Source: Myxococcales bacterium | GTDB taxonomy: Bacteria; Desulfobacterota; Binatia; HRBIN30 | Assembly: GCA_037445065.1 (NCBI GenBank) | Contig: JBBILD010000008.1 | Location: 123,131 to 187,130 of the forward strand | Direction of reading: 5' to 3' | DNA: 64,000 bases | Part shown: positions 14,852 through 43,659 of the stretch, one piece after another | How positions within the stretch are numbered: the first letter of the stretch is position 1 | Layout: each line of letters begins with the position of its first letter | Program-made: the position numbers and the translations under genes | The notes under the pieces: model-generated | The model's database searches: none | What the model was told of the DNA's origin: nothing | Seen by the model: only the letters and a program-made list of their open reading frames with translations

Positions 14852-16411
14852 ATGCGCCTGCCACGTGGAAGCGGGGTGCTGCTGCACCCGACAAGCTTGC
14901 CGGGTCCGTTTGGAATCGGTGATCTCGGGCCGGAGGCCCGCGCGTTTGTGGACGGGCTGGCGAGGGCCGGCCAGCAGTGGTGGCAAGTCCTTCCGCTCGG
15001 CCCCACTGGCTACGGCGACTCGCCCTATCAGTGCTTCTCGGCTTTTGCTGGCAATCCGCTGCTCATTGCCCCAGAAGAACTCATCGAGGAAGGCTGGCTC
15101 GAGCGTTCTGATCTGGAGCCGCTTCCTCCGTTCGTGGGGGGGCGTGTGGACTTCGAACGGTTGACGCCTTGGAAGCTTGCCTACTTACGGCGCGCCGCCC
15201 GCGGCTTCCTGCAGCGCGGTGGCGGAAACGCAGCTTCGGAGTTCGAGCGCTTTCGCCAGGAGCACGCGTTTTGGCTCGAGGACTTTGCCTTGTTCATGGC
15301 GCTGAAAGAAGCTCATGGAGGCGCAGTGTGGAGCGAATGGGAGCGGGATGTGGTGTGCCGGAAGGAACGGGCATTGGCGCGATGGCGGGGCGAGCTGGCC
15401 GCAGTGGTGGAGGAGTACAAGACCTTGCAGTTCTTCTTTTTCCGCCAGTGGCAGCGTTTGCGTGACTACGCTGCACATCGGGGTGTGCAACTGATTGGGG
15501 ATGTGCCGATTTTCGTGGCGTACGACAGCGCGGATGTGTGGTGCGCTCCCGAACTGTTCTTCCTGGATAAACAGAGGCATCCAACGGCAGTGGCTGGCGT
15601 TCCCCCGGATTATTTCAGTGCCACGGGGCAACTGTGGGGCAACCCGCTGTACCGATGGGAGCGGATGGCCGAAGATGGGTACCGGTGGTGGATCGCTCGG
15701 GTCCGCCACACCTTGGCGCTGGTTGATGTGGTGCGCATTGACCACTTTATCGGCTTTGTTCGTTACTGGGAAATCCCCGCCGGTGCTCCCACGGCTCAAA
15801 CGGGGCGTTACGTTCCGGGGCCAGGGGCGGATTTCTTACAGGCATTGCAACGGGCGTTGGGTGGTTTGCCGCTGATTGCCGAGGATCTTGGCGCGGTCAC
15901 ACCGGAGGTGGAAGCGCTGCGCGATGCGTTCGCTCTGCCGGGAATGAAGGTGCTGCAGTTCGCCTTTGCGAGCGACGCCCACGATCGTTTCCTCCCTCAT
16001 AACTTCACGCAGAATTTCGTGGTGTACACGGGCACTCACGACAACGACACCACGGTTGGCTGGTTCCAGAGCGCAAGCCCGCGAGAAAAACAGTTTGCCC
16101 TCCGATACTTGGGCCGAAGCGGCAAAGAGATCGCCTGGGAGCTGATTCGCTTGGGGATGTCATCGGTAGCGGACACCTTTGTGGTGCCAGCGCAAGACTT
16201 GCTCTCTTTGGCAAGTGAGGCGCGCATGAACTTTCCCGGTCGGCCCGAGGGCAACTGGGGGTGGCGTCTGCTCCCGGGGCAACTGGGCACGGCAGTTTGG
16301 GACCGGCTGGCCGATCTCACAGATGTGTATGGCCGAGCTCAGCCGGGCCCGAAGGCCCGGAAGGCAGGCTTGCCAGAGAACGGTTGCCCTCCTCCTGTGC
16401 TGCAAGCATAG
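14852..16411 (+). CDS. malQ: 4-alpha-glucanotransferase (GH77, amylomaltase)
   Basis: GVLLHPTSLPG, DSPYQ, GVPPDYFSATGQLWGNPLY, RIDHF, AEDLG, YTGTHDNDT; purine-rich RBS before ATG 14852. Confidence 0.96.
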   Translation: MRLPRGSGVLLHPTSLPGPFGIGDLGPEARAFVDGLARAGQQWWQVLPLGPTGYGDSPYQCFSAFAGNPLLIAPEELIEEGWLERSDLEPLPPFVGGRVDFERLTPWKLAYLRRAARGFLQRGGGNAASEFERFRQEHAFWLEDFALFMALKEAHGGAVWSEWERDVVCRKERALARWRGELAAVVEEYKTLQFFFFRQWQRLRDYAAHRGVQLIGDVPIFVAYDSADVWCAPELFFLDKQRHPTAVAGVPPDYFSATGQLWGNPLYRWERMAEDGYRWWIARVRHTLALVDVVRIDHFIGFVRYWEIPAGAPTAQTGRYVPGPGADFLQALQRALGGLPLIAEDLGAVTPEVEALRDAFALPGMKVLQFAFASDAHDRFLPHNFTQNFVVYTGTHDNDTTVGWFQSASPREKQFALRYLGRSGKEIAWELIRLGMSSVADTFVVPAQDLLSLASEARMNFPGRPEGNWGWRLLPGQLGTAVWDRLADLTDVYGRAQPGPKARKAGLPENGCPPPVLQA

Positions 16412-16418
16412 TCTGGCC

Positions 16419-17225
16419 ATGACCGAAGCTGGCGCAGCGGAAAAGGACACCGCCTCGCTTCTGGCTGCGGCGCAGGCGGGCGACCGTTCGGCCCTCGAAC
16501 GGTTGCTGGCACGCTACCAAGGACACATTTTGCGCTTCGGGCTCAAAATGTGCCGCCACCCGGAAGATGCCCGCGACGTGGTGCAAGAAACGCTGGTGGC
16601 GGCGGCCCGCTCCATTGAGCAGTTCCGCGGCGAAGCCTCGCTCTCCACGTGGCTCTATCGAATTGCGCGCAGCTTCTGTGCCAAAAAGCGTCGCCGGCGC
16701 GAGCTGGGATCGCCAACGGATCGCAGCGAAGAACTCGAGCAGGCCACCGACGCCGTGGCCGAGAGTCCTGAGGAGCAGGTCGGCACGCGCCAACTCGTGG
16801 AAGCCCTCTACGCTGCCCTCGACCAGCTCGACCCAAAATACCGAGAGGTGTTTTTGCTGCGCGATGTCGAGGGACTGAGCGCCGCCCAGACGGCGAGCGT
16901 GCTCGGCTTGCAAGTCGCGACCGTGAAAACCCGCCTGCACCGTGCGCGACTGCAAGTTCGGGCTGCCCTTGCCCCTGTGCTGGGCCGATCCGAACGCCAG
17001 CACGGCTGCCCGGAGATCGCGCGCGTGTTTTCGCGCCACCTTGAGGGTGACTTGTCTCCTCAACTGTGCGCGAAAATGGAGCGGCACCTTCGCCAGTGCA
17101 AGAGCTGCCGCAACGAATGTGAATCTCTCCGTTTCCTCCTTGCGGCTTGCCGCGAACTGCCCGGCACCGAGGTTCCAGAAGACCTGGACCGCGCGGTGCG
17201 CACCGCGATTCGAGAGGTGGCCTGA
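16419..17225 (+). CDS. ECF sigma-70 factor with fused C-terminal zinc-finger (zf-HC2/ZAS) domain
   Basis: Region 2 (DARDVVQET, FRGEASLSTWLYRIA), region 4 (TVKTRLHRAR), then C...HLRQCKSC (HxxxCxxC). Confidence 0.88.
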   Translation: MTEAGAAEKDTASLLAAAQAGDRSALERLLARYQGHILRFGLKMCRHPEDARDVVQETLVAAARSIEQFRGEASLSTWLYRIARSFCAKKRRRRELGSPTDRSEELEQATDAVAESPEEQVGTRQLVEALYAALDQLDPKYREVFLLRDVEGLSAAQTASVLGLQVATVKTRLHRARLQVRAALAPVLGRSERQHGCPEIARVFSRHLEGDLSPQLCAKMERHLRQCKSCRNECESLRFLLAACRELPGTEVPEDLDRAVRTAIREVA

Positions 17226-17340: not shown

Positions 17341-18090
17341 GTGGCCCCTGTGCGTTTGGGCGGTATCACCTTCGACTTTGGCGGCACGCTAGATGCCGAC
17401 GGGGAGCACTGGTGCGACCGCTTTGCTCGCCTGTACGGGGAAGTCGGCTGTAGGGTTGATCCCGCCCAGCTTCGCGCCGCGTTCGATGAAGCAACCCGCG
17501 CTGGCTACGCCGCCTCGGGGTTGCGGCATGCAAGCCTCTCCGAGCTAGTAGACTTCCACTTGCGCGCGCAGTGGAAGGCCTTGGGCTGGAAGTGGGGTGA
17601 TTCCGCCCAAGCCATTGTTGTCCTCTTCCTGCAAGAGGCCCAGGCGTATCTTCAGCGTAACCGTGCCCTGTTGGAGCGCTTGCGGGGTCGCGTGCGGCTC
17701 GGGGTGATTTCGAATTTCTATGGAAACTTGCCACGCGTGCTCGAGGAGGCAGGAATGGCGTGCCTGTTCGATAGCGTGCTCGACTCGACGATCGAGGGTT
17801 TTCGCAAGCCGGCTCCAGAAATCTTTGCTTTGGCTGCTGCTCGCTTGCAGGTAGCGCCCCGAGAACTCCTGCACATTGGCGACTCTCTCGAGCAGGATGT
17901 TTTCGCCGCCAAGCGCGCCGGGTTTCAAGCCGCCTGGCTGTGCGGCAACCAAGACAACACGGGTTGCCAGCGGCGCGAAGCAGACTGCGTGTTGCGCTCG
18001 CTCGAAGAGCTGATCCCCCTGGTGGAGCGTGCCGCCGTGCTTGACTCCCCGCACGGCAGCGCGGCCGTCCCCGTGCTTGGCCGGAGATGA
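17341..18090 (+). CDS. HAD-superfamily hydrolase (phosphatase)
   Basis: FDFGGTLD motif I, ISNFYGN motif II, KPAPEIF, HIGDSLEQDV motif IV. GTG start inferred. Confidence 0.88.
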   Translation: MAPVRLGGITFDFGGTLDADGEHWCDRFARLYGEVGCRVDPAQLRAAFDEATRAGYAASGLRHASLSELVDFHLRAQWKALGWKWGDSAQAIVVLFLQEAQAYLQRNRALLERLRGRVRLGVISNFYGNLPRVLEEAGMACLFDSVLDSTIEGFRKPAPEIFALAAARLQVAPRELLHIGDSLEQDVFAAKRAGFQAAWLCGNQDNTGCQRREADCVLRSLEELIPLVERAAVLDSPHGSAAVPVLGRR

Positions 18091-18794
18091 TTCAGCAGGC
18101 CGGGATCCTTGCTGCTGGGTTAGGAACGCGCTTGGTCCAGGACCGGGCGGCCGGGAAGCCAATGGTAGAGGTGCGGGGAAAGCCTTTGATCCATTACGTT
18201 GTTGCCGGGCTCGTCCAGGCTGGGGTGCGGCGCGTAGCCATGGTGCTCAATTCTCGCGGGCGAGCCGTCGAGGCGTACTGCCGGACAGCTTTTCCGCGTG
18301 TGGACTGGCGCATCGCCTATCATGACACTGCTCATTCCCTCGAAACGTTTCGTGCCCTACAGCCGCTCTTAGAGCGCCAGCGGTTCGTCTTGAGCATGGC
18401 GGACACTGTGCTGGCTCCGCGGGCACTGATCGCCTTCGTGAGCGAGGCGAGCGTGCGTTCTGAAACGATCACGCTGGCGGTGACGGACTGGGTTGACGAC
18501 GAAAAACCCTTGTGGGTTCGTTTCGATGCAAAAGGACGCGTAACAGCGCTTGGGCCTGAGGCGGCTGGCAGCGGTTGGGTGACGGCCGGGGTCTACGCCG
18601 TGGCCTCGGAGGTGTACTCCTGGCTCGACCGTTCTCAGGTAAGAAGCATGCATGGACTGAGTGAATTCTTTGCGTACTCGGTCAGAGTAGGGGCTGCTGT
18701 TCGCGCCATTCCGGTCGGCCAGGCGGTGGATGTGGACCGACCGGGAGACCTGGTGCAAGCAGAGCGCCTGCTTGAGCGACTGAAGCTGCCATGA
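18087..18794 (+). CDS. Sugar/cyclitol-phosphate nucleotidyltransferase (NTP_transferase)
   Basis: ILAAGLGTRL, KPMVEVRGKPLI, VDDEKPLWV, VDVDRPGDL; start overlaps HAD stop. Confidence 0.85.
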   Translation: MIQQAGILAAGLGTRLVQDRAAGKPMVEVRGKPLIHYVVAGLVQAGVRRVAMVLNSRGRAVEAYCRTAFPRVDWRIAYHDTAHSLETFRALQPLLERQRFVLSMADTVLAPRALIAFVSEASVRSETITLAVTDWVDDEKPLWVRFDAKGRVTALGPEAAGSGWVTAGVYAVASEVYSWLDRSQVRSMHGLSEFFAYSVRVGAAVRAIPVGQAVDVDRPGDLVQAERLLERLKLP

Positions 18795-19603
18795 TTCCTG
18801 ACTTTGTGTGCGTCTTGCGCGAGCCAGAGTTTTCTCCCGGACGCGTCGAAGATGATGCAGGGATCCTGCTTGCCGTTGCTAGTGTCCTGCGCAACCGGGG
18901 TTACACGGTGGAGCTCGTACAGGCACACGCACAGCGCTGGCCAAGGATCGGTACGGAAACGCTAGTGCTGTCTATGGCACAGGGCACGCCGGCTCTGGAG
19001 CGCCTCCGTGTTTGGGAAGTTGAGGGGGTACGGGTCATCAACTCGGTGAGCGCCGTGCAGAATTGCAGGCGAGCAGTTACCGACCGACTGCTGCGCCAGG
19101 GAGGCATTCCTCACCCTCCCACCCGCCTCCTTCCCTTGGACGCGCAAGTGTTGCCGACGGAGTGGTTTGCCTCGGGCGTATGGATCAAACGGGGCGACTT
19201 CCACGCCATGGCCGAGGGTGACGTGTCGTTGGTGCACTCCCCTGTGGAAGCAGACGCTGCGCTCGGGCGGCTGCGGGGGCGTGGCGTGGAGTACGCTGTG
19301 GTGCAGCAAAACGTGACCGGCCGAGTCGTGAAGTTCTATGTTGTGGCGGAGCAGTTCCTTTGCGTCACAGATGGGGGGGTGCCGGTAGCGGTACAACGCA
19401 AGATTGGAACGCTCGCGCGCCGTGCGGCAGCGTTGCTCGGGCTAGAGGTGTTCGGCGGTGACTGCGTTGTGACGCAGGCCGGCGAGTGTCTCTTGATTGA
19501 CTTGAACGACTGGCCTAGCTACGCCCGTTGCCGTCTTTCCGCAGCCGCGGCGATTGCCGCTTACGCGCAAGCAGAAAAGGGGAAGGGCTCGTCCCAAGAA
19601 TAG
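18791..19603 (+). CDS. ATP-grasp-fold protein (ITPK1-like motifs)
   Basis: RVINS...NC, WIKRGDFHA, VVQQNVTGRVVKFYVV, GLEVFGGD, LIDLNDWPSY; start overlaps upstream stop. Confidence 0.7.
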   Translation: MIPDFVCVLREPEFSPGRVEDDAGILLAVASVLRNRGYTVELVQAHAQRWPRIGTETLVLSMAQGTPALERLRVWEVEGVRVINSVSAVQNCRRAVTDRLLRQGGIPHPPTRLLPLDAQVLPTEWFASGVWIKRGDFHAMAEGDVSLVHSPVEADAALGRLRGRGVEYAVVQQNVTGRVVKFYVVAEQFLCVTDGGVPVAVQRKIGTLARRAAALLGLEVFGGDCVVTQAGECLLIDLNDWPSYARCRLSAAAAIAAYAQAEKGKGSSQE

Positions 19604-19614
19604 AGCCGAAGATC

Positions 19615-20949
19615 ATGACGCCTTTCGATTTCGTTCCAGGGCCGGGCTCGCGGCGAGTGGTTGAAGAGGAGCGGCTCTATCTCGCTCCGGGTGTGCAGCG
19701 CATTGCCTCGCTCTCTGGCTTGGTGTTCCATCGCGGCCGAGGGTGTACGCTCGAGGACGTGGATGGCAACCGGTACCTGGACTTTTTTGCCGGTGTCGGG
19801 GTGGCAAGCTTGGGCCACAGTCACCCGCGCTTCGTTAGCGCCGTTCAGCGGCAGGTGGAGCGGTTGGTTGTCGGCAGCTTCACTTCGCAAGCCCGCGCTC
19901 GCCTCTTGCGCCTGTTGGCGGAACTAGGCCCGGGCAGGCTGCAGCGGTCCCAACTGTACAGTGGTGGTGCCGAGGCCGTAGAAGCAGCCATTCGGCTGGC
20001 GAAGTCGTACACGAAGAAATTCGAAGTGATTGGATTCTGGGGTGGTTTTCACGGGAAGACCGGTGGAGTCATCGGCCTGATTGGCGATCCCTGGAAACAG
20101 CATTGGGGACCGTTGCCTCCCGGAACGCACTTGCTGCCGTACGCGGATTGTTACCGCTGCCCGTTCGACCTGCAGTACCCGAGCTGCGGTATGTTTTGCT
20201 TGGAGTTCGCACGCCGGGCCATCAAACGGAGCACTGCCGGAGCCGTTGCGGCCATTGTCGTCGAGCCGATGCAAGGGACGGCGGGGAACGTGATTCCTCC
20301 GCCTGAGTTTCTGCCTGGCGTGGCGGAAATCGCGCGTGAGCACGATGCGGTGCTGATTTGCGACGAGATCATTACCGGCTTTGGGCGTACGGGAACAATG
20401 TTCGCGTGCGAGCACACCGGGGTCGAGCCAGACGTAATGACGATCGGGAAGGGCTTCGGGAACGGCTTCCCGATCAGCGGCCTCATTGCCCGCGAGGAGG
20501 TTACGCAAGCAGAACCGTTCTCCAGACCGAGCGCCTCTTCTTCCAGCTACGGAGGGAATCCCCTGGCAGCCACCGCGGCCCTCGCGACGGTGGAAACCAT
20601 CGTCGAAGAAAACTTGGTCACGCACGCCGCCCGGGTCGGCGAGCGGTTACTGAATGAGCTGCGAGCCCTGCAGGAAAAGTACCCCTTTGTCGGCGACGTG
20701 CGTGGCGCTGGGCTTCTTATCGGTCTGGACCTGGTGCGCGATCGGCGCAGTAAGGAGCCTTTGCCCGCCGAAGTAACCGAGTGGGTCTTCCTGCAGGCGC
20801 TGCAGCGGGGTTTGCTGTTTATGGGGTACTTCTCCCGCGTTCGCATCAATCCTCCGTTGGTTCTAACCGAGAGTGAGGCGCGCGACGGGGCGGCAATCTT
20901 GGACGAGGTGTTTGCTGAGTTGGAGCGGAGTGGGCGGCATCGCGCATGA
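19615..20949 (+). CDS. Class III PLP-dependent aminotransferase
   Basis: DVDGNRYLDF, SGGAEAVE, FHGKT, EPMQG, DEIITGFGRTG, IGKGFGNG, SYGGNP. Confidence 0.92.
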   Translation: MTPFDFVPGPGSRRVVEEERLYLAPGVQRIASLSGLVFHRGRGCTLEDVDGNRYLDFFAGVGVASLGHSHPRFVSAVQRQVERLVVGSFTSQARARLLRLLAELGPGRLQRSQLYSGGAEAVEAAIRLAKSYTKKFEVIGFWGGFHGKTGGVIGLIGDPWKQHWGPLPPGTHLLPYADCYRCPFDLQYPSCGMFCLEFARRAIKRSTAGAVAAIVVEPMQGTAGNVIPPPEFLPGVAEIAREHDAVLICDEIITGFGRTGTMFACEHTGVEPDVMTIGKGFGNGFPISGLIAREEVTQAEPFSRPSASSSSYGGNPLAATAALATVETIVEENLVTHAARVGERLLNELRALQEKYPFVGDVRGAGLLIGLDLVRDRRSKEPLPAEVTEWVFLQALQRGLLFMGYFSRVRINPPLVLTESEARDGAAILDEVFAELERSGRHRA

Positions 20950-21962
20950 CACGACGGCGGCGTGGGGCACTGCTTGGCTTCGGAGAAATGGCGCGCCTGG
21001 GGCACTTGCCTGCCTGGAGGGAGCGGCCGGAGTTCGAACTGGTCGCGGTGGTTGACCCCAACCCGGAGCGACTGGCATTGGCCCGGCAGGCCCTACCACA
21101 CGCTCGGCCCTGCTCGACCTTGGAGGAATTGTGGGAGCACGGCCCCCTCGACTTCGTAGACATTGCTACGCCACCCACTTTCCACACCGCTATGGCCCGA
21201 GCTGCCCTCGATCGCGGGATCGCTGTTTTGTGCGAAAAGCCCTTGACGACGAATTTGACCGAATTCCTCGTGCTCGCGGCCATCAGCCGGAGCGGCGGTA
21301 TTGCCCTCCACACGGTTCACAATTGGCGCCATTCGCCTGCGCAGCGGGCCGTTTCCGCGTTGTTGCAAAGCGGGCGTATCGGACGAGTGCGTCGCGCCGA
21401 AATCCGCGTCGAACGAGAAGGGTGTGCGGTGGGAAGCGCAGGTGACTGGCGCCTGCTGGGCGAGGTCGCGGGAGGGGGAATCCTCACCGATCACGGCTGG
21501 CATGCGTTCTATTTGGTCGCGGGGTGGTTGGGCGGCACCCCGCGATTCGTTCGCGCCTCGGCGGAGCAGCGGCGCTACCTCCATGCCGAGGTGGAAGATA
21601 CGTCGCACTGCGTGATCGAGTTCCCGAGCGGAACGGCGGAGCTGCACCTCACTTGGGCTGCGTCACGACGCCACACAGCGTGGCGAATCGAAGGGGAGCG
21701 CGGGGAAATTCGAGTCGAGCAAGGGGTTTTGGTGCTCGAGGATGAGCGGGGGCGGATGCGGCGGCCAGTTGCGGGGCTGTCTGCTGGTTCCCATCACCCG
21801 GATTGGTTCGGCGCCGTCATCGAGGAGTTTCGTTCTGTCCTGGAGGACCCTACGCAGTCCAATTTAGAGCAGGCCGGCTGGTGCGTGGCTCTCCTGAGCC
21901 AGGCGTACCGCTCGATTCGTCAAGGGGGAGCCAGGGTGCCTGTGTCCCTGTCGCTCCCGTGA
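20946..21962 (+). CDS. Gfo/Idh/MocA-family NAD(P)-dependent oxidoreductase
   Basis: GFGEMA, IATPPTFH, CEKPL, GGGILTDHGWH; start overlaps aminotransferase stop. Confidence 0.9.
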   Translation: MTRRRRGALLGFGEMARLGHLPAWRERPEFELVAVVDPNPERLALARQALPHARPCSTLEELWEHGPLDFVDIATPPTFHTAMARAALDRGIAVLCEKPLTTNLTEFLVLAAISRSGGIALHTVHNWRHSPAQRAVSALLQSGRIGRVRRAEIRVEREGCAVGSAGDWRLLGEVAGGGILTDHGWHAFYLVAGWLGGTPRFVRASAEQRRYLHAEVEDTSHCVIEFPSGTAELHLTWAASRRHTAWRIEGERGEIRVEQGVLVLEDERGRMRRPVAGLSAGSHHPDWFGAVIEEFRSVLEDPTQSNLEQAGWCVALLSQAYRSIRQGGARVPVSLSLP

Positions 21963-21975
21963 GCGGGAACGAGGA

Positions 21976-23169
21976 GTGGACATGGATCGCGCGGTGATTC
22001 TACCGCCCACGGAAGCTAGCTTTTGGCGCGTTGCGGGGCTCACGGTATTGGAACGGGTAATACGGACTGCCCAGCGCGCTGGTTTCCAGACGGTGGCGGT
22101 GTGGTTGCCGGAGGAGCGAGATCCCGCCCCGTGCGGGAGTGCCGAGCGCAATGCTCGACCTCTCTTGTCCGACGTCCGTCTCCAGCCAAAACCCCGATTG
22201 GATGACCATGTGTGGGTGCTTTTGCCGAGCGATGCAGTGTGGCCGGCTGCTACCTTACACGCTTTGCGTGGGTTGCCCCTGAACGGCGCCGTACAGGAGA
22301 TCGAGCTTGCGCCGGGCGTGAGCGTGTGGGTCGGGCCCGGAAAGCAATTGACTCGCATCCTCGAGGGTTGCGAGCCTGCTCGCGCCGCAAAGCTTTTAAG
22401 TACGCTAGCCAGCGCAAAACTCTCTCTGCCCGACGGGGTAGGCGTGCGAGTCGCACAGCGCCGAGCCGTGGATCACGCCGAGCGCGTGCTGTGCGAACAC
22501 ATTCGCGGCCAGACGGCGGGGTCGGATGGTTTGCTGGCACGCTGGTTCGACCGCCGACTGTCGCTTTGGCTGAGCCGACAAATCGTTCGCTACACCTCGC
22601 TCCGCCCGAATCATATCACGCTGCTGGGCACCGCCGTGGGCTTGTTTGGGGCTGCTTTGCTGCTGCGTGGCGAGTACGCGAGCAATGTGCTGGGAACAGC
22701 GTTGTTCTGGCTGGCGACGGTGCTCGATGGATGCGACGGAGAGGTGGCTCGGCTCAAACTGAGCGAGTCGAAATTTGGGCAGGTGCTGGACGTGGCTACC
22801 GACAACCTCGTCCACGCGGCTGTGTTTCTCGGCCTGGGGTTGGGTTACGCCCGCGCGCAGCCGGAGGCCCCGTACGGGTGGCTCACGGTTTTGTTGCTCG
22901 GCGGCTTCGTCTGCGCTGGAGGTGCGAGCTACTTTGCGCTGGTGCGGCACCCCGAACTTTTTGTGGGGGACCAGCGCCGTGCCTCGCGAACAGCCCGGAT
23001 GCGAGCGGCTTTGCTGCAGGGACTCAAGGCGCTCATGACCCGGGATTTTGCGTATCTGCTTTTGCTTCTCGCTTTCCTCGACCGCTTGCATTGGTTCTTG
23101 TGGGGTGCAGCTTTCGGCACGTACGGTTTTTGTCTCCTGCTTTTGCTCCTCTACCGCTGGCGCCCTTGA
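21976..23169 (+). CDS. CDP-alcohol phosphotransferase (DIPPS-like) with degenerate N-terminal NTP-transferase-like region
   Basis: DGLLARWFDRRLS...PNHIT, LDGCDGEVAR...GQVLDVATD CDP-alcohol motif; N-terminal VAGLTVLERVIRTAQRAG. Confidence 0.87.
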   Translation: MDMDRAVILPPTEASFWRVAGLTVLERVIRTAQRAGFQTVAVWLPEERDPAPCGSAERNARPLLSDVRLQPKPRLDDHVWVLLPSDAVWPAATLHALRGLPLNGAVQEIELAPGVSVWVGPGKQLTRILEGCEPARAAKLLSTLASAKLSLPDGVGVRVAQRRAVDHAERVLCEHIRGQTAGSDGLLARWFDRRLSLWLSRQIVRYTSLRPNHITLLGTAVGLFGAALLLRGEYASNVLGTALFWLATVLDGCDGEVARLKLSESKFGQVLDVATDNLVHAAVFLGLGLGYARAQPEAPYGWLTVLLLGGFVCAGGASYFALVRHPELFVGDQRRASRTARMRAALLQGLKALMTRDFAYLLLLLAFLDRLHWFLWGAAFGTYGFCLLLLLLYRWRP

Positions 23170-23183
23170 GAGGTGGGCGAGCC

Positions 23184-24188
23184 ATGGGAGTACTGCGCTC
23201 GCGGAAATTCGAGGCGGCCTTTTTTCTCCTGGGCATCGCGTTGTTTGCCTGGCTGGCGCAGCGCTTTGGCTGGTCAACGCTCGTGGATGCGGTGCAACTC
23301 GCCGGCTGGGGTTTGCTGGCCGTTGTCGCGCAGGAGATCCTCGCGCATCTCTTGAACACGCTCGGCTGGTATTTTGCGTTTGCCCGCACCAGCCGCCGCC
23401 CTCCGTTCTCCTCGATGCTCCTCGCCCGCATCGCGGGGGATGCCGCCAATTACCTTACCCCGACTGCGACCCTGGGTGGTGAGTTTGTCCGCTTGCAACT
23501 GCTGCGGGATGCTACCCATGGCCGGGAGCTGGTGGCTTCGCTGGCGGTAGCGAAGTTGGCGCAAAGCGCGGGACAAGTGGTGTTTATTTCTGCCGGTGCC
23601 CTCGTGCTCCTGCCGGCCCTTGCACTCGATGCGAAGTGGTGGTGGACGATAGCTGCAACCATCGCGCTCATGGCCGTAGCGTTGGCCGTGCTTTTGTGGT
23701 GGCAGCGGCGAGGTATGTTCACTTCGCTGGGAGGTTGGCTGGGACGCGCCAACCCTTTAGCGCGCGAGCGATGGGACCGCCGCTTGGCTGTGCTCGACGC
23801 CGAAGTTAGCCGCGTGTACCAGGAGGCCGGGCTGCGCATGCCGCTTTCGGTGCTCGCCTTTGCTCTCGGTTGGGCGGCGGGCGTGATCGAGATGTACCTG
23901 ATCCTCTGGTGTTTAGGATTGCCGGCAAGCTGGAGCCTCGCGCTGGCGATCGAGGTGCTCTCGGTGACCGTTGACGGTTTGCTCTTTTTTATTCCGGCCA
24001 AAATGGGTGCGCAGGAGGGGGGTAAGGCGTTGATCTTTGCCCTCTTGGGGCTGGACCCGAGCCGCGGCTTCTCTGCTGGCGTGCTGCGCCGAATTCGTGA
24101 ACTGGTTTGGTCGGGCGTTGGCCTTGGCCTGTGGTGGCTCGTCCGCTGGCGGAACGGAGTGCAGGTCTCCGCGGCCAGTTTGGGGTAA
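23184..24188 (+). CDS. Lysylphosphatidylglycerol-synthase TM / flippase-like membrane protein (HpnL-like)
   Basis: Multi-TM; RIAGDAANYLTPTATLGGE, FFIPAKMGAQEGG, RRIRELVW. Confidence 0.82.
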   Translation: MGVLRSRKFEAAFFLLGIALFAWLAQRFGWSTLVDAVQLAGWGLLAVVAQEILAHLLNTLGWYFAFARTSRRPPFSSMLLARIAGDAANYLTPTATLGGEFVRLQLLRDATHGRELVASLAVAKLAQSAGQVVFISAGALVLLPALALDAKWWWTIAATIALMAVALAVLLWWQRRGMFTSLGGWLGRANPLARERWDRRLAVLDAEVSRVYQEAGLRMPLSVLAFALGWAAGVIEMYLILWCLGLPASWSLALAIEVLSVTVDGLLFFIPAKMGAQEGGKALIFALLGLDPSRGFSAGVLRRIRELVWSGVGLGLWWLVRWRNGVQVSAASLG

Positions 24189-24197
24189 GGAGGGGGC

Positions 24198-25166
24198 TTG
24201 CTGCCAGCGAGTGTTGCAGCAGGGCGGGAACCCGCAGCGCGTCTCGGGCCGCAGCAGGCTCTTATCGTCTCTGCAGATGATTTTGGCCTCTCCCACGGCG
24301 TCAACGAGGCAGTCCGGCAGGCGCACTGCCACGGTGTGCTCACCAATGCGAGCCTGATGGTCAATGGCTCAGCGTTCGAGGAAGCGGTAGACATCGCGCA
24401 CTCGCTGCCGAGCATGGGCGTGGGCTTGCACTTGGTGCTCTTGCAGGGGCGCGCAACCCTTACCGAACTCGACCTCCCAGGACTGATTTCTCGCGAGGGT
24501 TTCTTCCGGCAAGACCCGGTCCGTACCGGCTTGCTCTATTTTTTCGCAAAGCGCTTGCGCGACCAACTCGAAAGAGAAATCCGCGCTCAGCTCGAAAAGT
24601 TCCTGGCCAGCGGGCTCGCGTTGTCGCACGTTGACGGGCATTTGAACATCCACGTGCACCCAACGGTGCTGAGCATCCTTGTCAGCGTTGCGGCGGAGTA
24701 CGGCATTCGCGCCCTGCGCCTGCCTAGGGAGCCTTTGCGGTTATCGCTGCGCGCTAACCACTCGCAACTGCTGCGCAAAGTGGTCGAGTCACTCACCTTT
24801 CGCGCGTTGTGCCGCCATGCGGCCAGGCGGCTCGACGAGCATCGGATCGCTTATCCCGATCAGCTTTTTGGGTTGCATCACTCGGGGCACATGACCGAAT
24901 CGTACCTGCGGGTGATGACCGAGAGCCTGCCGCCAGGAGTGACCGAAATCTACACGCATGCTTCGCGGGTGGACGACGAGGCAGCCCGTTGGCGTCCGCG
25001 GGACTACGAGTGTGAAGGCGAGCTGCAAGCTTTGCTCAGTGCGCAACTAAAACAGCAGATCCAAGACCGTGGCATCGCGCTGATCACGTACCGGGATCTG
25101 CCGCGACTTCGGGGGGCGGAGCAGAACGAGACTCGGTCGCCGTCGCAAGCAACGCTGCTCCGCTAA
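24198..25166 (+). CDS. hpnK: Hopanoid biosynthesis-associated deacetylase (YdjC/ChbG family)
   Basis: SADDFGLS, ASLMVNG, GLHLVL, HVDGHLNIHVHP, GVTEIYTH; close to hpnJ. Confidence 0.85.
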   Translation: MLPASVAAGREPAARLGPQQALIVSADDFGLSHGVNEAVRQAHCHGVLTNASLMVNGSAFEEAVDIAHSLPSMGVGLHLVLLQGRATLTELDLPGLISREGFFRQDPVRTGLLYFFAKRLRDQLEREIRAQLEKFLASGLALSHVDGHLNIHVHPTVLSILVSVAAEYGIRALRLPREPLRLSLRANHSQLLRKVVESLTFRALCRHAARRLDEHRIAYPDQLFGLHHSGHMTESYLRVMTESLPPGVTEIYTHASRVDDEAARWRPRDYECEGELQALLSAQLKQQIQDRGIALITYRDLPRLRGAEQNETRSPSQATLLR

Positions 25167-25956
25167 TGGCCAAAACGAAGGCCAGCAGGCGATAACTTGC
25201 CTCTGGCTGCTGTGGGGGAAGACGCTCGCCGAGCACGACCAAACCAGCGACGATGGGCAACATGTCGGAAAGAACTGTGAGGATCGGCACCACCACCACA
25301 CCGCGCCCGTGCTGCAGTGCTGACTGCATCAGGGAAAAGCCGGCGACATTGGTAACGATAGTCAGCCAAAGAGCTGAGCTACGCAGCACCTCGGCCAAGG
25401 ACGGCGCCACCGCCAGGAGTTTCGCAAAAAGCCCTGAGAGACCGAGGATCAGACCCGCCGCGATCGAGTACCCTACGGGCCGCCCCGGCCGCGAATCGAG
25501 CCCGAATGCCAGCGTGGCAAGCAACACTTGAGTCGCGACGAACCACCACAAACCTCGCGGTGCGGTCGGGAGCACCGGCTCGTCGTCCAAGGAAAGCCCG
25601 AACAAGACCAAGGCCACGGTGATCGAGAGGGCTCCGAGCCACTCCCGTTTCCCCGCCGACTCGCCGAGCAGCGAAACTGCCAAGAGCAGGAACAGGACCA
25701 GCCCCCCGCTCAAAGCAGTGTGGACGAGGGACAGAGGAGCGAAGCGGAGCACGGCAAGATAGAGTCCGTACCCAAGCGCTTGCAGGGCGACTCCCCAGAG
25801 CCAGGCAGGGTTGCGCAAGAAAGCCGCCCACGATCGGAACCGTAGGCCACCCGCCAGTTCCGGCATCTTTGGTGCCTCGCGCTTCATCAGGTAGAGGCCG
25901 CAACTCAGAAAAGCGCTGGCTACGGCGGCAAGAAACAGGGCGAGTTGCGGGCTCAT
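25084..25956 (-). CDS. DMT-superfamily membrane protein
   Basis: About 9 hydrophobic helices; NPAWLWG, APLSLV, GESAGKREWLG, FSLMQSALQHG; 3' end overlaps hpnK by 83 bp. Confidence 0.75.
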   Translation of the reverse strand: MSPQLALFLAAVASAFLSCGLYLMKREAPKMPELAGGLRFRSWAAFLRNPAWLWGVALQALGYGLYLAVLRFAPLSLVHTALSGGLVLFLLLAVSLLGESAGKREWLGALSITVALVLFGLSLDDEPVLPTAPRGLWWFVATQVLLATLAFGLDSRPGRPVGYSIAAGLILGLSGLFAKLLAVAPSLAEVLRSSALWLTIVTNVAGFSLMQSALQHGRGVVVVPILTVLSDMLPIVAGLVVLGERLPPQQPEASYRLLAFVLAISGAALLATATESRSAPPPEVAADPGT

Positions 25957-26058
25957 GCGTGCAGTCGGGCCGAGCTGTTGCAAAACTCCTGCAGAGCTGC
26001 CCCCGGGGCCAATGTTCCGTTCGGGGAGGGGTGAGCAACCAGGTGAGGAGTCAAGCGG

Positions 26059-27492
26059 TCAGGCAGATGCTGCCGGCTCCCGCCTCTGGGCAAAGAAGGA
26101 GAAAAACTCGCGCGCCTCGCGCAAGCGGCGAACCATCACTTTGCGGTCTTTGAGCATGTCCTTCATAATCCGCAGAATCGGCCGCGGGCGCAGGTAAAAC
26201 GCCTTGTAAAAATGCTCGAGCGCCTCGTGCATTTCCTGCGACGAGAGTTCTGGGTAGTTCAGAACCGCTTGCTGGATACCGTGGTCTTCTACGAGTCCGT
26301 CTTCTCGATCCGGCGGTAGCCAGCCTTTTTCCTTCGCCTGACGGTACAACTCCGTTCCCGGATACGGGGCAGCCAGGGACACCTGCAAGCTGTACGGGTC
26401 GAGTTCCTTGGCGAACTCGAGGGTGCGCGCGATGGTTTCTGGCGTCTCGCCCGGCAGGCCAATGATAAACGTGCCGTGCACCAAGATGCCGAGCTTATGG
26501 CAATCGCGCATGAATTCGCGCGCGCGGTCCACCCGCGTGCCTTTGCGGATATTGTTCAAGATGTGTTGGTTCCCGGTTTCGAAGCCAACCAAGAGCAGCC
26601 GCAGCCCATTGTCCTTGAGCACCTTGAGCGTTTCGTACGGGACGTTTGCTTTCGCGTTGCAGGACCATGTGATCCCTAGTTTCCCGAGGCCGCGCGCGAT
26701 TGCCTCGGCGCGCGGGCGATCATCGGTAAAGGTGTCGTCGTCGAAAAAGAACTCCCGCACCTGAGGAAAAATCTCTTTGGCGTGCGCCATCTCAGCGATC
26801 ACGTGCTCGGCGCTGCGGGTGCGGTAGACGTGCCCGGCGATCGTTTGTGGCCACAAGCAAAAGCTGCATTTGCTCCGGCAGCCGCGCCCGGTGTACAAGG
26901 ACACGTACGGGTGCTGCAAATAACCAATGTAGTAGTTCTCGATGACGAGGTGCTTTTTGTACACGTCCACCACGAACGGGAACGCATCTAGGTCGTGGAT
27001 GGGCGGCCGAGTCGGGGTGCGCCGGATCTCCGTTCCCTCGCGGTACGCCAATCCGGCCACGTTCTGGTAGGGCTGGCCTTCGGCGATGTCGCGGATCACG
27101 TAGTCGAATTCGCCGAGCGTGACAAAGTCCACCGCAGGAGCCACCTGCAGTGTCTGCTCAGGAAGCACCATGGTGTGGGCGCCGACAAAGCCGATCACGG
27201 CGTGCGGGTACGCCTCTTTGAGGGCGGCCGCGACTTTGGCGTCGGACCGCAACGATGGCGTAGAGGTGTGGATGACGATCAAATCGTGGCCAGCCGCGCG
27301 CTGAATGACTTCTTCCAAGCCGAGTTCGTGCGGCGGTGCATCAATCAACGTACTGTCGGGAAGCAGCGATGCAGCCTGGGCAAGCCAAGTCGGGTACCAG
27401 AAGGAACGGACTTCGCGCCGCGCCTGGTAGCGCGACCCAGCCCCGCCGTCGAAATGGTCGAACGACGGTGGGTTCAAGAACAACGTTTTCAT
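26059..27492 (-). CDS. hpnJ: Hopanoid biosynthesis-associated radical SAM protein
   Basis: MKTLFLNPPSFDHFDGGAGSRYQARREVRSFWYPTWLAQ N-terminus characteristic of HpnJ; CRSKCSFC radical-SAM motif; FFDDDTFTD. Confidence 0.93.
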   Translation of the reverse strand: MKTLFLNPPSFDHFDGGAGSRYQARREVRSFWYPTWLAQAASLLPDSTLIDAPPHELGLEEVIQRAAGHDLIVIHTSTPSLRSDAKVAAALKEAYPHAVIGFVGAHTMVLPEQTLQVAPAVDFVTLGEFDYVIRDIAEGQPYQNVAGLAYREGTEIRRTPTRPPIHDLDAFPFVVDVYKKHLVIENYYIGYLQHPYVSLYTGRGCRSKCSFCLWPQTIAGHVYRTRSAEHVIAEMAHAKEIFPQVREFFFDDDTFTDDRPRAEAIARGLGKLGITWSCNAKANVPYETLKVLKDNGLRLLLVGFETGNQHILNNIRKGTRVDRAREFMRDCHKLGILVHGTFIIGLPGETPETIARTLEFAKELDPYSLQVSLAAPYPGTELYRQAKEKGWLPPDREDGLVEDHGIQQAVLNYPELSSQEMHEALEHFYKAFYLRPRPILRIMKDMLKDRKVMVRRLREAREFFSFFAQRREPAASA

Positions 27493-27800: not shown

Positions 27801-28610
27801 ATGGCAAAAGCGACGGTTTTGGCGCTTACCGCCGGAGCGGTGATGTGGCTGACGTTCCTTGGCCACTCTGCGCGCGCGCAAAGCAAGTTTGCGGGGCTAG
27901 TTGAAACGCGGCGCGTGGAGGTGGATGCAAACACGTTGGTTCGCGTTCTGGGTGGAGTTGCCGGGGATCCGGTGCAAGTGTTCAGCTTGCCGAGTGAGCG
28001 GATCGTGCGCCTGAAAGAGCAGGGAGATCCCGGGGTGCAAGTCAAGGAAGAAGTCTTCCGTGTGCGAGACGGTGTTGTTCGCGCAGATGTACCCTGGCGG
28101 AACGGGCCTTCGTTTGTCCTGATCCGCGTTGGTCAGGACGTTATGGAATGGGTCCATCCCGGGGAACGCACTGTGATCCAGTGGCGCAAACCGCCCATTT
28201 TGCGCCAGCTCACGCCGAGCCCGACTCCCGCGTTACAACCCTTGCAGCGAACGGTTTCGCTGGGGGGCCTCGAGGCCGAAGGCTACCAGCTCAAGCGAGG
28301 AAGCGAGATCGCCTGGGTGTGGATTGCTCGCTCGCCTGCAGGCCTGGCGGAAATCGCGAAAGCCGTGGCCGCCTTATCGCAGGCAATCAAACCGGAAGCG
28401 GAGCGCGTGGACGATTTTGCAATACGGGCCGCTTCTGCGATCGGATTTCCGGCCCGTGTGCAGGCGTGGACTGCGCGTGGCTACACCTTGTACGAAGTGG
28501 TGCGCGTGGAGCCGAAGGAACAACCCGCGGAGGATTTTGCGGCGCCGCGGGACTTTCGCCGCGTGTCTACGGGCGATCTCCAAGGCGAGAAAGAGAGCCG
28601 ACAGCCGTGA
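27801..28610 (+). CDS. Exported protein, DUF4412-like
   Basis: Signal peptide (ARA-Q), TVSLGGLEAEGYQL, IGFPARV, C-terminal FAAPRDF; resembles 44355-45167. Confidence 0.55.
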   Translation: MAKATVLALTAGAVMWLTFLGHSARAQSKFAGLVETRRVEVDANTLVRVLGGVAGDPVQVFSLPSERIVRLKEQGDPGVQVKEEVFRVRDGVVRADVPWRNGPSFVLIRVGQDVMEWVHPGERTVIQWRKPPILRQLTPSPTPALQPLQRTVSLGGLEAEGYQLKRGSEIAWVWIARSPAGLAEIAKAVAALSQAIKPEAERVDDFAIRAASAIGFPARVQAWTARGYTLYEVVRVEPKEQPAEDFAAPRDFRRVSTGDLQGEKESRQP

Positions 28611-36145: not shown

Positions 36146-36886
36146 TCAAGACCGGCGTTGCCTGCGCATCTGCCGTTCTAGGAAAAGCGCGGCACGGGTC
36201 ACGCGCGCTTGCAAGATATCGAGCCCTCGCCGCCGGAACGAACGGATCCAGGTGCGAACGTGGTTGAGCGCGACGCCGAGAGCTGCCGCGATTTCCTCGT
36301 CGCTGCGCCCTTCATGGGCTGCCAAAAGCACCTGTGCGAGTAGCCTTCTGCCCGGTTGGGGGTTGCGGCGCCAAACCTGGAGCACTCGTTCCACTGCGGG
36401 CGTCAAACGCAACCGCAAGTGCCTTGCCCTGCGCCAGTACTGGGGCGGGAGCTCACTGCCACGAAGCAACTGCCGCAGTCCCTCGACGCTGATTTCGTAG
36501 ATCAGCCCCTGTTCGAGCAAGTAGGAACGGAGCAAGCGCAGAGACCAGCGTCCCCGCGCAAGCCCGAGGCTGCGTGGAGAACTCTGCGCGATGCGGATGA
36601 TTTGGGATTTCGTATCCTCGTCGAACAACAGCGGGCGCGCCGTGCCCGTGGCTGCGTGCATGAGGCCTGGGATTCCGCGTTCGCAAAAATTCAAGACGCA
36701 GTTCCGCACTGTGTTCGGATGGATGCGGAAGCGGCGGGCAATCTCTTTGAACGGATAGCCGGAGCCACGGGCGAGGATGATTCGCGCCCTGCGTGCGACT
36801 CGCGCTGAGGCGTGTTTAGCGAGCCATTCCAGTTCTCTTTGCTCGGCTTCGCTCAATTGCAACGGGTCCCGTAGCGGTCGCTTCAT
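36146..36886 (-). CDS. Tandem helix-turn-helix protein derived from the IS630-type transposase DNA-binding region (no DDE domain)
   Basis: LSEAEQRELE...RRARIIL...EIARRFRIHPNTVR...RWSLRLL...ISVEGLRQLL, then a second HTH copy (EIAAALGVALNHVRTWIRSF); GGAG RBS before ATG 36886. Confidence 0.7.
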   Translation of the reverse strand: MKRPLRDPLQLSEAEQRELEWLAKHASARVARRARIILARGSGYPFKEIARRFRIHPNTVRNCVLNFCERGIPGLMHAATGTARPLLFDEDTKSQIIRIAQSSPRSLGLARGRWSLRLLRSYLLEQGLIYEISVEGLRQLLRGSELPPQYWRRARHLRLRLTPAVERVLQVWRRNPQPGRRLLAQVLLAAHEGRSDEEIAAALGVALNHVRTWIRSFRRRGLDILQARVTRAALFLERQMRRQRRS

Positions 36887-36929
36887 TTGCTCAGCTCCCC
36901 CACACACGCGCCGAACGTGCAGTTGCTGT

Positions 36930-36958
36930 TGCATATGCGCTCTGGCAAGCAAAGTCAA
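36930..36958 (-). promoter_or_regulatory. Putative sigma-70 promoter for the HTH gene
   Basis: Minus strand TTGACT-N17-TATGCA, with the -10 box about 44 bp upstream of ATG 36886. Confidence 0.5.
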
Positions 36959-37009
36959 CGGAAAACTGGGCAAAGACTCCGTCTCTAGGGAGGAGGGTAG
37001 GGGAAACCG

Positions 37010-43557: not shown

Positions 43558-43659
43558 GGGTCGCGGCTCTAGAGTACGGCGCGAAGCCTGACAAGCGAAA
43601 TTGCTTTGCCGGGTAGAGCTGCTGTGATACGCAAGAGCCATCGGAGCGGAAGGACGGAA

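Follow-up and report, generated by a model that had tools for sequence, protein, structure and literature searches.

Described systems and the locus

Inositol lipids, rare in bacteria and common in gut Bacteroidota, affect capsule and host fitness (PMC9246714). For B. vulgatus and Prevotella a 'putative alternative inositol lipid cluster' was described beside the gene for myo-inositol-1-phosphate synthase (MIPS) (Heaver et al. 2022, PMC9246714). It contains an NTP transferase (BVU_RS13095), a CDP-alcohol phosphatidyltransferase (RS13105) and a HAD hydrolase (RS13115), often together with an LPG-synthase-like gene, and the route proposed there leads from CDP-inositol and a lipid to a phosphoinositol lipid (PI). 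Plain phosphoinositol dihydroceramide (PI-DHC) is credited to the clusters of B. vulgatus and P. veroralis, and P. veroralis has a fusion of the CDP-alcohol transferase with the HAD (PMC9246714). In the main text and in eight supplement files of that paper the proposed pathway has these three genes, and an ATP-grasp gene is not mentioned. Here we analyse a stretch of 64,000 nucleotides (the window) from a Myxococcales bacterium (assembly GCA_037445065.1, contig JBBILD010000008.1), in which a conserved gene for an ATP-consuming enzyme of the ATP-grasp superfamily (18791..19603) would be the fourth gene of such a pathway, sitting between the others. It encodes a widespread, unstudied enzyme that uses ATP and has its place in the centre of an operon for inositol-based membrane-lipid head groups; most likely the enzyme phosphorylates the inositol, here in aminated form, and is not a true relative of the eukaryotic kinase ITPK1.

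Comparable chemistry is known from the IPCT/DIPPS systems for the di-myo-inositol phosphate of Archaeoglobus and the Thermococcales and from CDP-inositol-dependent ether-lipid synthesis (BEPIS of Rhodothermus marinus). These systems share with the window a cytidylyltransferase and a CDP-alcohol transferase acting on a MIPS-derived inositol phosphate, with a phosphatase last. They differ in that they need neither an ATP-grasp enzyme nor an amination, whereas the window cluster contains genes of lipid-export type, and the corresponding NCBIfam scores are here far below cut-off (72 vs 580 bits). In streptomycin biosynthesis the aminocyclitol is made by an inositol dehydrogenase, an aminotransferase and a scyllo-inosamine kinase, in this order. 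The sequence of oxidation, transamination and ATP-dependent phosphorylation is the same as in route (b) proposed below; the streptomycin kinase, however, is of the aminoglycoside-phosphotransferase type and the aminotransferase of the DegT type. Among inositol kinases of the ATP-grasp fold, ITPK1 is reported to phosphorylate the inositol 3-phosphate (Ins-3-P) made by MIPS (Desfougeres 2019, as cited in PMC8024741).

Compared with the published alternative cluster, the window has the NTP transferase, CDP-alcohol transferase, HAD and LPG-synthase-like genes in one cassette (17350..24188) and MIPS in the genome. It differs by the ATP-grasp gene, by an additional oxidoreductase and aminotransferase, and by being joined to hpnK and hpnJ. 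The genes concerned are the following (coordinates in the window, strand, product):

17350..18090, +, HAD-IA phosphatase-type hydrolase (Pfam Hydrolase 4.3e-18, HAD_2, Hydrolase_like; start approximate, the frame being open from 16942 and the HAD domain beginning at residue 141 of that frame)
18087..18794, +, sugar/polyol-phosphate nucleotidyl(cytidylyl)transferase (NTP_transf_3 2.2e-12, NTP_transferase 2.3e-8; N-terminal half of NCBIfam IPCT/DIPPS 8.9e-11, residues 4-229)
18791..19603, +, stand-alone ATP-grasp enzyme of an unnamed family, Q64/E11 subtype (270 amino acids, stop-free open reading frame)
19615..20949, +, class-III (acetylornithine/GABA-type) pyridoxal-phosphate-dependent aminotransferase, amination module (Aminotran_3 1.3e-98)
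20946..21962, +, Gfo/Idh/MocA oxidoreductase, inositol-dehydrogenase-like, amination module (GFO_IDH_MocA and C-terminal domains; NCBIfam myo_inos_iolG 4.7e-16, below cut-off)
21976..23169, +, CDP-alcohol phosphotransferase with an N-terminal extension of ~200 amino acids (CDP-OH_P_transf 8.1e-13, residues 211-325)
23184..24188, +, flippase-like membrane protein, HpnL-like (LPG_synthase_TM 2.7e-24; TIGR03476 HpnL 157.5 bits, cut-off 195.65)
24198..25166, +, HpnK, YdjC-type deacetylase of the hopanoid cyclitol-ether pathway (TIGR03473 331.2 bits, cut-off 232.6)
25084..25983, −, DMT-family membrane transporter (NCBIfam DMT_1 1.3e-11, below cut-off; weak Pfam EamA/NIPA)
26059..27492, −, HpnJ, B12-binding radical SAM enzyme of the hopanoid cyclitol-ether pathway (TIGR03471 745.1 bits, cut-off 577.6; start approximate, the match being residues 106-576 of a frame of 582 amino acids)
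42241..43550, −, MIPS (NAD_binding_5 3.6e-99, Inos-1-P_synth 1.3e-29), ~23 kb downstream and the sole match in the genome; start approximate

The ATP-grasp gene lies between a nucleotidyltransferase gene and an oxidoreductase/aminotransferase pair; the initial annotation of this DNA had placed it between a nucleotidyltransferase and cyclitol-type redox genes. Its start codon overlaps the stop of the nucleotidyltransferase gene (ATGA, 18791-18794), which indicates that the two are translationally coupled. The stop of the HAD gene likewise overlaps the start of the nucleotidyltransferase gene (18087/18090), and the oxidoreductase gene overlaps the aminotransferase stop by 4 nucleotides. Taken together, these 4-base overlaps argue for a translationally coupled operon. 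The best NCBIfam models for the CDP-alcohol transferase, all sub-threshold, are IPCT/DIPPS (3.5e-20), archaetidylinositol-phosphate synthase (5.9e-14) and phosphatidylinositol phosphate (PIP) synthase (6e-14). The flippase-like protein resembles HpnL, whose function is stated to be unknown in the hpnL literature. Further hopanoid genes (shc, hpnH, hpnI) lie on other contigs of the same genome.

Two side observations concern these proteins. Residues ~1-200 of the CDP-alcohol transferase (21976..22600) resemble by eye a degenerate nucleotidyltransferase domain lacking G-x-G-T-R, which no model confirms, and the transferases of Bacteroidota (325-332 amino acids) have no such extension. The MIPS frame is open over 666 codons (42241..44241, −) with the domain starting at codon 243, so that either a long N-terminal extension or an upstream in-frame start is present.

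Conservation of the ATP-grasp protein

The initial annotation had pointed out three motifs in this protein, corresponding to residues 170-185 (nucleotides 19298-19345), 217-227 (19439-19471) and 235-244 (19493-19522). All three are present in the uninterrupted frame of 270 amino acids. We counted the conservation of residues in an alignment of 211 family members: K133, K181, Y183, G222, N239 and P242 occur in all of them, D224 and D237 in 210, W241 and S243 in 207, and D240 in 196. The three motifs are not chance strings; conservation within this large, unnamed ATP-grasp family is highest there. Invariant basic residues outside the ATP-binding set are few, namely R10 and R134; H138 is found in 181 of the 211 sequences.

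The conserved positions include the superfamily set, namely the ATP-phosphate lysines K133 and K181 and the Mg2+ ligands D224, D237 and N239, their equivalence being taken from HMMER alignments to RimK and ITPK. In these alignments the stretch D237-L-N239-D-W-P-S-Y falls on 'iDiNafPgY' of ITPK1 and 'vDlNylPsf' of ITPK4, and K181 falls on the lysine of the 'KFY' strand of ITPK4. RimK has 'mEvNssPG' at the aligned place, that is E-x-N where the family has D-x-N. The earlier view that the C-terminal motifs stand nearer to ITPK than to RimK is in agreement with this, as HMMER aligns ITPK in exactly those segments. The family and ITPK have in common the D-x-N with an aromatic-P-[GS]-[YF] turn after it, strands of the types G-x-D and K-[FV]-[YF]-V, and the inositol context.

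Spread and gene context

Relatives of the protein are numerous. A representative protein library contained 929 at E <= 1e-3, 578 at <= 1e-10 and 119 at <= 1e-30; among contigs from one genome per species 511 of 514 candidate stretches encode a relative, and a metagenome scan yielded at least 594 further relatives, human-gut contigs among them. According to the record titles the carriers are Ca. Binatia, Terriglobales, Thermodesulfobacteriota/Syntrophobacteraceae, Myxococcota, Verrucomicrobiota, Bacteroidota, Ignavibacteria, Planctomycetia and the isolate Desulfoferrobacter suflitae DRH4. The family occurs in at least seven phylum-level groups. We found no publication on this enzyme in the literature.

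The neighbourhood was counted in the best 80 genome loci by BLAST with the window proteins; as several contigs are short, the counts are lower bounds. The nucleotidyltransferase is found in 78 loci, the aminotransferase in 77, the HAD in 74, the oxidoreductase in 64, the CDP-alcohol transferase in 49 and the flippase-like protein in 47, while HpnJ occurs in 22 and HpnK in 19. The best-conserved cassette gene is the aminotransferase, with 50-77% identity across phyla. MIPS lies inside 15 of the 80 genome loci (directly upstream of the HAD gene in 10) and inside 42 of 80 metagenome loci. At the level of genomes MIPS is present in 45 of 48 carriers compared to 6 of 14 in a control set. A match to shc over cut-off was found in 36 of the 48 carriers and in none of the five Bacteroidota among them, so that a general dependence of the cassette on hopanoids was rejected. 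This suggests that the cassette is tied to inositol phosphate everywhere, and to hopanoids in some lineages only.

Where hopanoid genes exist, however, their linkage to the cassette is tight. In the window and in Binatia relatives hpnK, the DMT gene and hpnJ abut the cassette, and in two loci (L033 and L052) shc, hpnK, hpnJ, MIPS and the cassette share one contig. In four other lineages the radical-SAM genes adjoining the cassette score 739-754 bits with the HpnJ equivalog model (cut-off 577.6) and are bona fide HpnJ, an observation new here. In one of them, the locus L015 of the cultured Desulfoferrobacter suflitae DRH4, the genes run hpnJ, HAD, nucleotidyltransferase, ATP-grasp, aminotransferase, oxidoreductase. 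These lineages are Desulfoferrobacter, a Syntrophobacteraceae metagenome-assembled genome (MAG), a Thermodesulfobacteriota MAG and a Myxococcales MAG; the HpnJ genes lie at 7082-8542 in L015, 6993-8471 in L071, 5373-6872 in L033 and 12663-14687 in L036.

Fusions were listed from 150 proteins. The nucleotidyltransferase and the ATP-grasp enzyme are joined in four of them (P0133, P0157, P0208, P0229), a triple fusion of HAD, nucleotidyltransferase and ATP-grasp occurs in P0264, and the ATP-grasp enzyme is also found fused to the CDP-alcohol transferase.

Genes of lipid transport were seen in or beside several clusters. In Bacteroidota MlaE/MlaF/MlaD can stand between the nucleotidyltransferase and the ATP-grasp gene (L063 7436..9942), in Desulfoferrobacter an outer-membrane efflux protein, MlaC and YhdP lie in or beside the cluster (L015 14220..16564, 19998..20663), and an MMPL transporter neighbours it in L071 (3791..6610). 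The presence of these genes suggests that the product is a membrane lipid and not a solute.

The Arg64 sister subfamily treated below is found in clusters of the gut-Bacteroidota type that correspond to the published alternative cluster. Metagenome loci related to the Bacteroidales locus L072 have the order nucleotidyltransferase, ATP-grasp, CDP-alcohol transferase, in some cases the flippase-like gene, HAD and MIPS. The ATP-grasp gene was found in 17 of 301 sampled Bacteroidota genomes, each time with the orthologous CDP-alcohol transferase within ~3 kb. Five genomes have the transferase without the ATP-grasp gene; the same loci (L175-L179) also lack the nucleotidyltransferase, HAD and MIPS, which is why they represent a different context and were rejected as exceptions. 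The adjacency in 17 of 17 genomes and the different context of the transferase-only loci, both new here, argue that the ATP-grasp gene is a constant, overlooked member of the gene set. The skipped locus tag between RS13095 and RS13105 in B. vulgatus, together with the human-gut contigs, suggests that the cluster of this species contains it as well. The transferases of L175-L179 show 40-45% identity to the cluster enzyme, one having a flippase-like neighbour. Tandem duplicates of the ATP-grasp gene were seen in two Bacteroidota genomes (G449:C51:12677-14327 and G520:C4:50869-52496), the first of which has a third copy on a separate contig.

Residue 64 and the amination genes

Residue 64 lies in a loop of the N-terminal domain (M62-x-Q64-G) and was compared over 160 loci, one row of which was too gappy to score. 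Ninety loci have Gln64. The aminotransferase was detected in 88 of these by open reading frame BLAST and in L039 by tblastn; in L031 the sequence ends at the ATP-grasp gene, so that the aminotransferase is not judgeable. In L039 (10815..12119) the aminotransferase is split over three frames, probably by an assembly error and not by decay. Arg64 is found in 69 loci, none of which has the aminotransferase or the oxidoreductase, and in 35 of them the sequence extends for 3 kb or more to either side of the gene. Residue 11 behaves similarly, being Glu in 71 of the 90 Gln64 loci and Ala or Gly in 53 of the 69 Arg64 loci. A third subgroup with Glu64 comprises 11 of the 211 family members (P0127, P0166, P0189, P0205, P0218-P0221, P0224, P0255, P0256).

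Among the first 80 loci L071 and L072 have neither amination gene. The complete Bacteroidales chromosome behind L072 contains no aminotransferase orthologue, the best match having 33% identity compared to at least 50% for cassette orthologues. L071 is placed within a Q-type Syntrophobacteraceae clade, where it has independently changed Q64 to R and lost both amination genes. Relative to its ten nearest relatives it differs at 19 positions, two of which converge on the state of the R clade: Q64R (68/68 in the R clade, 0/91 in the Q clade) and L238F (59/68 vs 3/91).

That residue 64 tracks the amination genes makes it probable that the cyclitol itself is bound. Residues 11 and 64 may face the ring position where one subfamily has OH and the other NH3+. 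To judge from conservation, R10, E11, Q64, D240 and W241 may line the pocket. If so, the cyclitol would be the substrate and the amination would precede the ATP-grasp step. The split between Q64/E11 and R64/A11, its tie to the amination genes and the one independent reversal are new here, and the pair of residues is a candidate for a natural specificity switch.

Proposed function

Fold, conservation and gene association are observed; what they mean for function we infer. We read the enzyme, with moderate confidence, as a cyclitol or cyclitol-phosphate kinase in a CDP-activated inositol-type pathway for lipid head groups. The wider context of MIPS, CDP-alcohol transferase and HAD makes this function the most economical one, and context is more informative about function than fold.

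The main rival reading, less probable, is that of a carboxylate-amine or carboxylate-hydroxyl ligase. Such an enzyme would form the acyl phosphate of an amino acid or another acid and join it to the new amino group or, in clusters without aminotransferase, to a hydroxyl group of inositol. The resulting head group, an N-acyl or aminoacyl cyclitol, would be exported by the MprF-like flippase domain protein. The appeal of this reading is that the aminotransferase directly downstream supplies a plausible nucleophile, and that MprF, which synthesises aminoacyl-lipids, has a flippase part to which the neighbouring LPG_synthase_TM protein is related. A set of aminotransferase, ATP-grasp amidoligase and HAD phosphatase is also known from the serinol/ethanolamine amidation of the Campylobacter capsule.

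Several observations favour the kinase over the ligase. The minimal cluster (MIPS, nucleotidyltransferase, ATP-grasp, CDP-alcohol transferase, HAD) offers no carboxylate-bearing intermediate, and the conserved genes of the cassette include none for a carboxylate donor, a carrier protein or the supply of an acid. The ATP-grasp enzyme persists in the 69 Arg64 loci, which have no amination genes; these, and the complete chromosome without an aminotransferase, also led us to reject the idea that it acts only on the amine made by the aminotransferase. The metal motif is the kinase-type D-x-N within N-D-W-P-S-[FY] (ITPK: D-x-N-x-F-P-G-Y) and not the E-x-N of RimK, Ddl and LysX. The fusion partners are the nucleotidyltransferase and the HAD, and fusions of kinases with nucleotidyltransferases are a known pattern for consecutive steps (HldE, FKP). 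Finally, the product reported for clusters of the B. vulgatus/Prevotella type is undecorated (PMC9246714). PI-DHC without an additional acyl or aminoacyl group fits a phosphate that is consumed or removed, and not a decorating ligase.

In the proposed reaction the ATP-grasp enzyme would phosphorylate a cyclitol hydroxyl with the gamma-phosphate of ATP. In the window the cyclitol would first be oxidised by the Gfo/Idh/MocA enzyme and then transaminated by the class-III aminotransferase to an amino-inositol. Two routes can be drawn, of which we prefer (a). In route (a) MIPS would make Ins-3-P, and the ATP-grasp enzyme would put a second phosphate on the (amino)inositol monophosphate or on CDP-(amino)inositol, before or after activation with CMP. 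The activated donor carrying this second phosphate would be used by the PIP-synthase-like transferase, which would place phospho-(amino)inositol-phosphate on a lipid alcohol. This transferase may be regarded as kin of enzymes whose products keep that phosphate, namely PIP, archaetidylinositol phosphate (AIP) and di-myo-inositol-phosphate phosphate (DIPP). The HAD would then take off the spare phosphate; the fusion of transferase and HAD in P. veroralis (PMC9246714) fits a HAD acting after transfer. With route (a) the five enzymes would act one after another, each in a single step. In the Kennedy-type route (b) the HAD would free the cyclitol, which would then be aminated and re-phosphorylated by the ATP-grasp enzyme for the cytidylyltransferase.

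The adjacent hpnK and hpnJ suggest that in this organism the lipid acceptor may be a hopanoid. A bolder extension, to which we give only a small chance of being correct, is that the Q64/E11 subfamily is an amino-inositol(-phosphate) kinase whose product is CMP-activated and moved to a hopanoid (bacteriohopanetetrol or its cyclitol ether) and not to diacylglycerol. This would yield a phospho-aminocyclitol hopanoid, an undescribed lipid class, and would make the family the missing fifth enzyme of a route with CDP-inositol-phosphate, not CDP-diacylglycerol, as activated partner, gut Bacteroides and Prevotella included. More generally, if the enzyme is a kinase the chemistry of the published pathway changes, since the donor would become CDP-inositol-phosphate and the HAD would gain a role. 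The amination module and the linkage to hpnK and hpnJ point to amino-inositol phospholipids or hopanoid conjugates, compounds not known from lipidomics.

Fold and family assignment

That the protein is an ATP-grasp enzyme is confirmed by a confident AlphaFold2 model (predicted local distance difference test, pLDDT, 95.3; predicted template modelling score, pTM, 0.90), by superfamily fold matches over residues 1-270 (the best VIA match over residues 3-264) and by the conserved catalytic residues. The comparison of this model with solved structures is, together with some chemical considerations, where the points that weigh against a kinase are found. With VIA the closest solved folds are ArgX (3vpb, Z 21.8), RimK (4iwx, 20.8), LysX/ArgX (5k2m, 20.6) and Ddl (20.3), whereas the kinases PPIP5K2 (17.8), human ITPK1 (17.7), Entamoeba ITPK1 (17.5), potato ITPK1 (17.4) and ITPK4 (16.1) follow later, with ITPK1 and PPIP5K2 ~4 Z units under the ligase folds. 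Foldseek gave at least 500 PDB matches at E <= 0.001, the top rows of which are all ATP-grasp enzymes and, among the matches listed, Ddl, ArgX, LysX, RimK and VanA ligases throughout. The NCBIfam matches are restricted to weak ones to RimK, MptN and LysX (residues 65-113), and the best PDB match of a family profile is PsnB, an ester/amide-forming macrocyclase, followed by RimK. Regarding the chemistry, the MIPS product is already a phosphomonoester, so that a kinase is not strictly required; Rhodothermus is said to use CDP-inositol directly, as Jorge et al. reportedly found; and both kinase routes use up an ATP for a phosphate group that is taken off or exchanged at a later stage. The correlation with residue 64 is limited as well: in a FastTree tree built without the columns of residues 11 and 64 the state of residue 64 changes only twice (sign test p 0.5). 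With two independent changes the correlation is largely a subfamily split, and we make no statistical claim from it.

The initial annotation had named two outcomes that together would speak against its inositol kinase: amide ligases lacking an inositol-phosphate pocket as best structural matches, and an absence of kinase activity on cyclitols. Of these, the amide-ligase matches were found, the best being ArgX, RimK and Ddl and not ITPK1. ITPK was detected by VIA although it is not in the Foldseek top rows, and its absence there therefore carries no weight.

Profile searches place ligases and kinases side by side. A profile of 44 sequences matched RimK (0.0016), ITPK4 (0.0021) and ITPK1 (0.005) among PDB sequences; with 108 sequences all scores rose, and the matches were still interleaved: PsnB 2.5e-8, RimK 3.5e-7, ITPK4 (7pup) 7.8e-7, other RimK ~6e-6 and ITPK1 (2odt/2q7d/2qb5) 2.8e-4. 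The alignments to RimK and PsnB extend over approximately residues 60-270, compared to the C-terminal 70-90 residues for ITPK. In a search with the single sequence human ITPK1 (2odt) was matched at E 0.9 over residues 205-245. Owing to this interleaving the sequence alone does not assign the family. The neighbours in the protein atlas are bacterial clusters with mixed RimK and PF05770 labels and are non-discriminating.

The relation to RimK, LysX and ArgX (3vpb, 4iwx, 5k2m, 7qyr) is the closest in overall shape, with a root-mean-square deviation of 2.6-3.4 Å over 241-250 residues, a similar size and three-domain layout, and an alignment of RimK to the family profile over residues 69-270. However, the window has no peptide or carrier-protein partner gene and a CDP-alcohol context. 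TIGR00768 (RimK) matches only residues 65-113, with 26.5 bits (cut-off 143.4), and LysX reaches 20.1 bits (cut-off 275.6). PF08443 is neither among the Pfam matches of the window protein nor among the 25 families commonest in 44 members. With these scores and D237 in place of the glutamate of E-x-N, membership in RimK/LysX was rejected. The sugar-transfer associated ATP-grasp family ATPgrasp_ST (PF14397) is weakly matched by 10 of the 44 members, which may be counted for a ligase; the window protein reaches E 0.0056, sub-threshold.

With ITPK (human ITPK1 2q7d/2qb5/2odt, Entamoeba 1z2n, potato 8oxe, Arabidopsis ITPK4 7pup) the protein shares the ATP-grasp fold over 233-250 aligned residues. 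It is more compact, with 270 compared to 310-340 amino acids, and stands in a lipid head-group operon instead of a polyphosphate pathway. Of all Pfam families PF05770 is matched by the largest number of members, 18 of 44 at E <= 10 with 4e-4 as the best value, all but sub-threshold; for the window protein the match is limited to residues 205-246, with 12.7 bits where 23 would be needed (E 0.091). The ITPK N-terminal domain gave no Pfam match at E <= 10 for the window protein and is not among the 25 families commonest in the 44 members. Membership in the ITPK family, as implied by the initial annotation, could therefore not be upheld. Its remark that bacteria are not generally credited with this kinase family was too strong, as bacterial protein-atlas clusters have PF05770 in 21-77% of their members.

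The least probable explanation we considered is a true orthologue of the eukaryotic/Asgard ITPK, which would make soluble inositol polyphosphates (InsP3-InsP6) for signalling or storage. The alignment of the C-terminal motifs and the K-F-Y strand with ITPK4 and ITPK1 and the presence of MIPS in nearly all carrier genomes are consistent with it. Yet PF05770 has only five weak matches in 301 genomes of the window's phylum and none in a genome-wide search of the window's own genome, the invariant partners are genes of lipid head groups and lipid transport and not further kinases or phytases, and the few invariant basic residues named above fit poorly with a polyphosphate pocket.

It is also very unlikely that the protein is a carboxyphosphate enzyme of the PurK/biotin-carboxylase type that N-carboxylates the amino group to a carbamate head group, or a non-catalytic ATP-binding scaffold for a complex of cytidylyltransferase and CDP-alcohol transferase. 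PurK, PurT and carbamoyl-phosphate synthetase domains do appear with VIA at Z 18.4-19.9, and carbamylated amino-hopanoids are known from methanotrophs. An N-carboxylation is contradicted by the persistence of the enzyme in loci without any amine, and Pfam and NCBIfam gave no match to a PurK or biotin-carboxylase family model. A scaffold would fit the fusions to three pathway partners, but each of the catalytic residues is present in 210-211 of the 211 sequences.

The protein is thus a member of a distinct unnamed ATP-grasp family in the neighbourhood of RimK and ITPK, belonging to neither by their own criteria. It combines the D-x-N/aromatic-Pro turn of inositol kinases with the compact overall shape of ligases.

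Flanking genes

Further features of the window outside the cassette are:

16323..17225, +, ECF-type sigma factor (Sigma70_r2, r4_2) with a C-terminal zf-HC2 anti-sigma-type zinc finger (residues 229-263), directly upstream of the cassette
27801..28610, +, DUF4412 protein (20.9 bits, just below cut-off)
36146..37141, −, IS630-family transposase fragment (83.6 bits, cut-off 100), between the cassette and MIPS

A DUF4412 protein also adjoins the nucleotidyltransferase gene of the Bacteroidales cluster (L072 7689..8513, E 9.4e-10).

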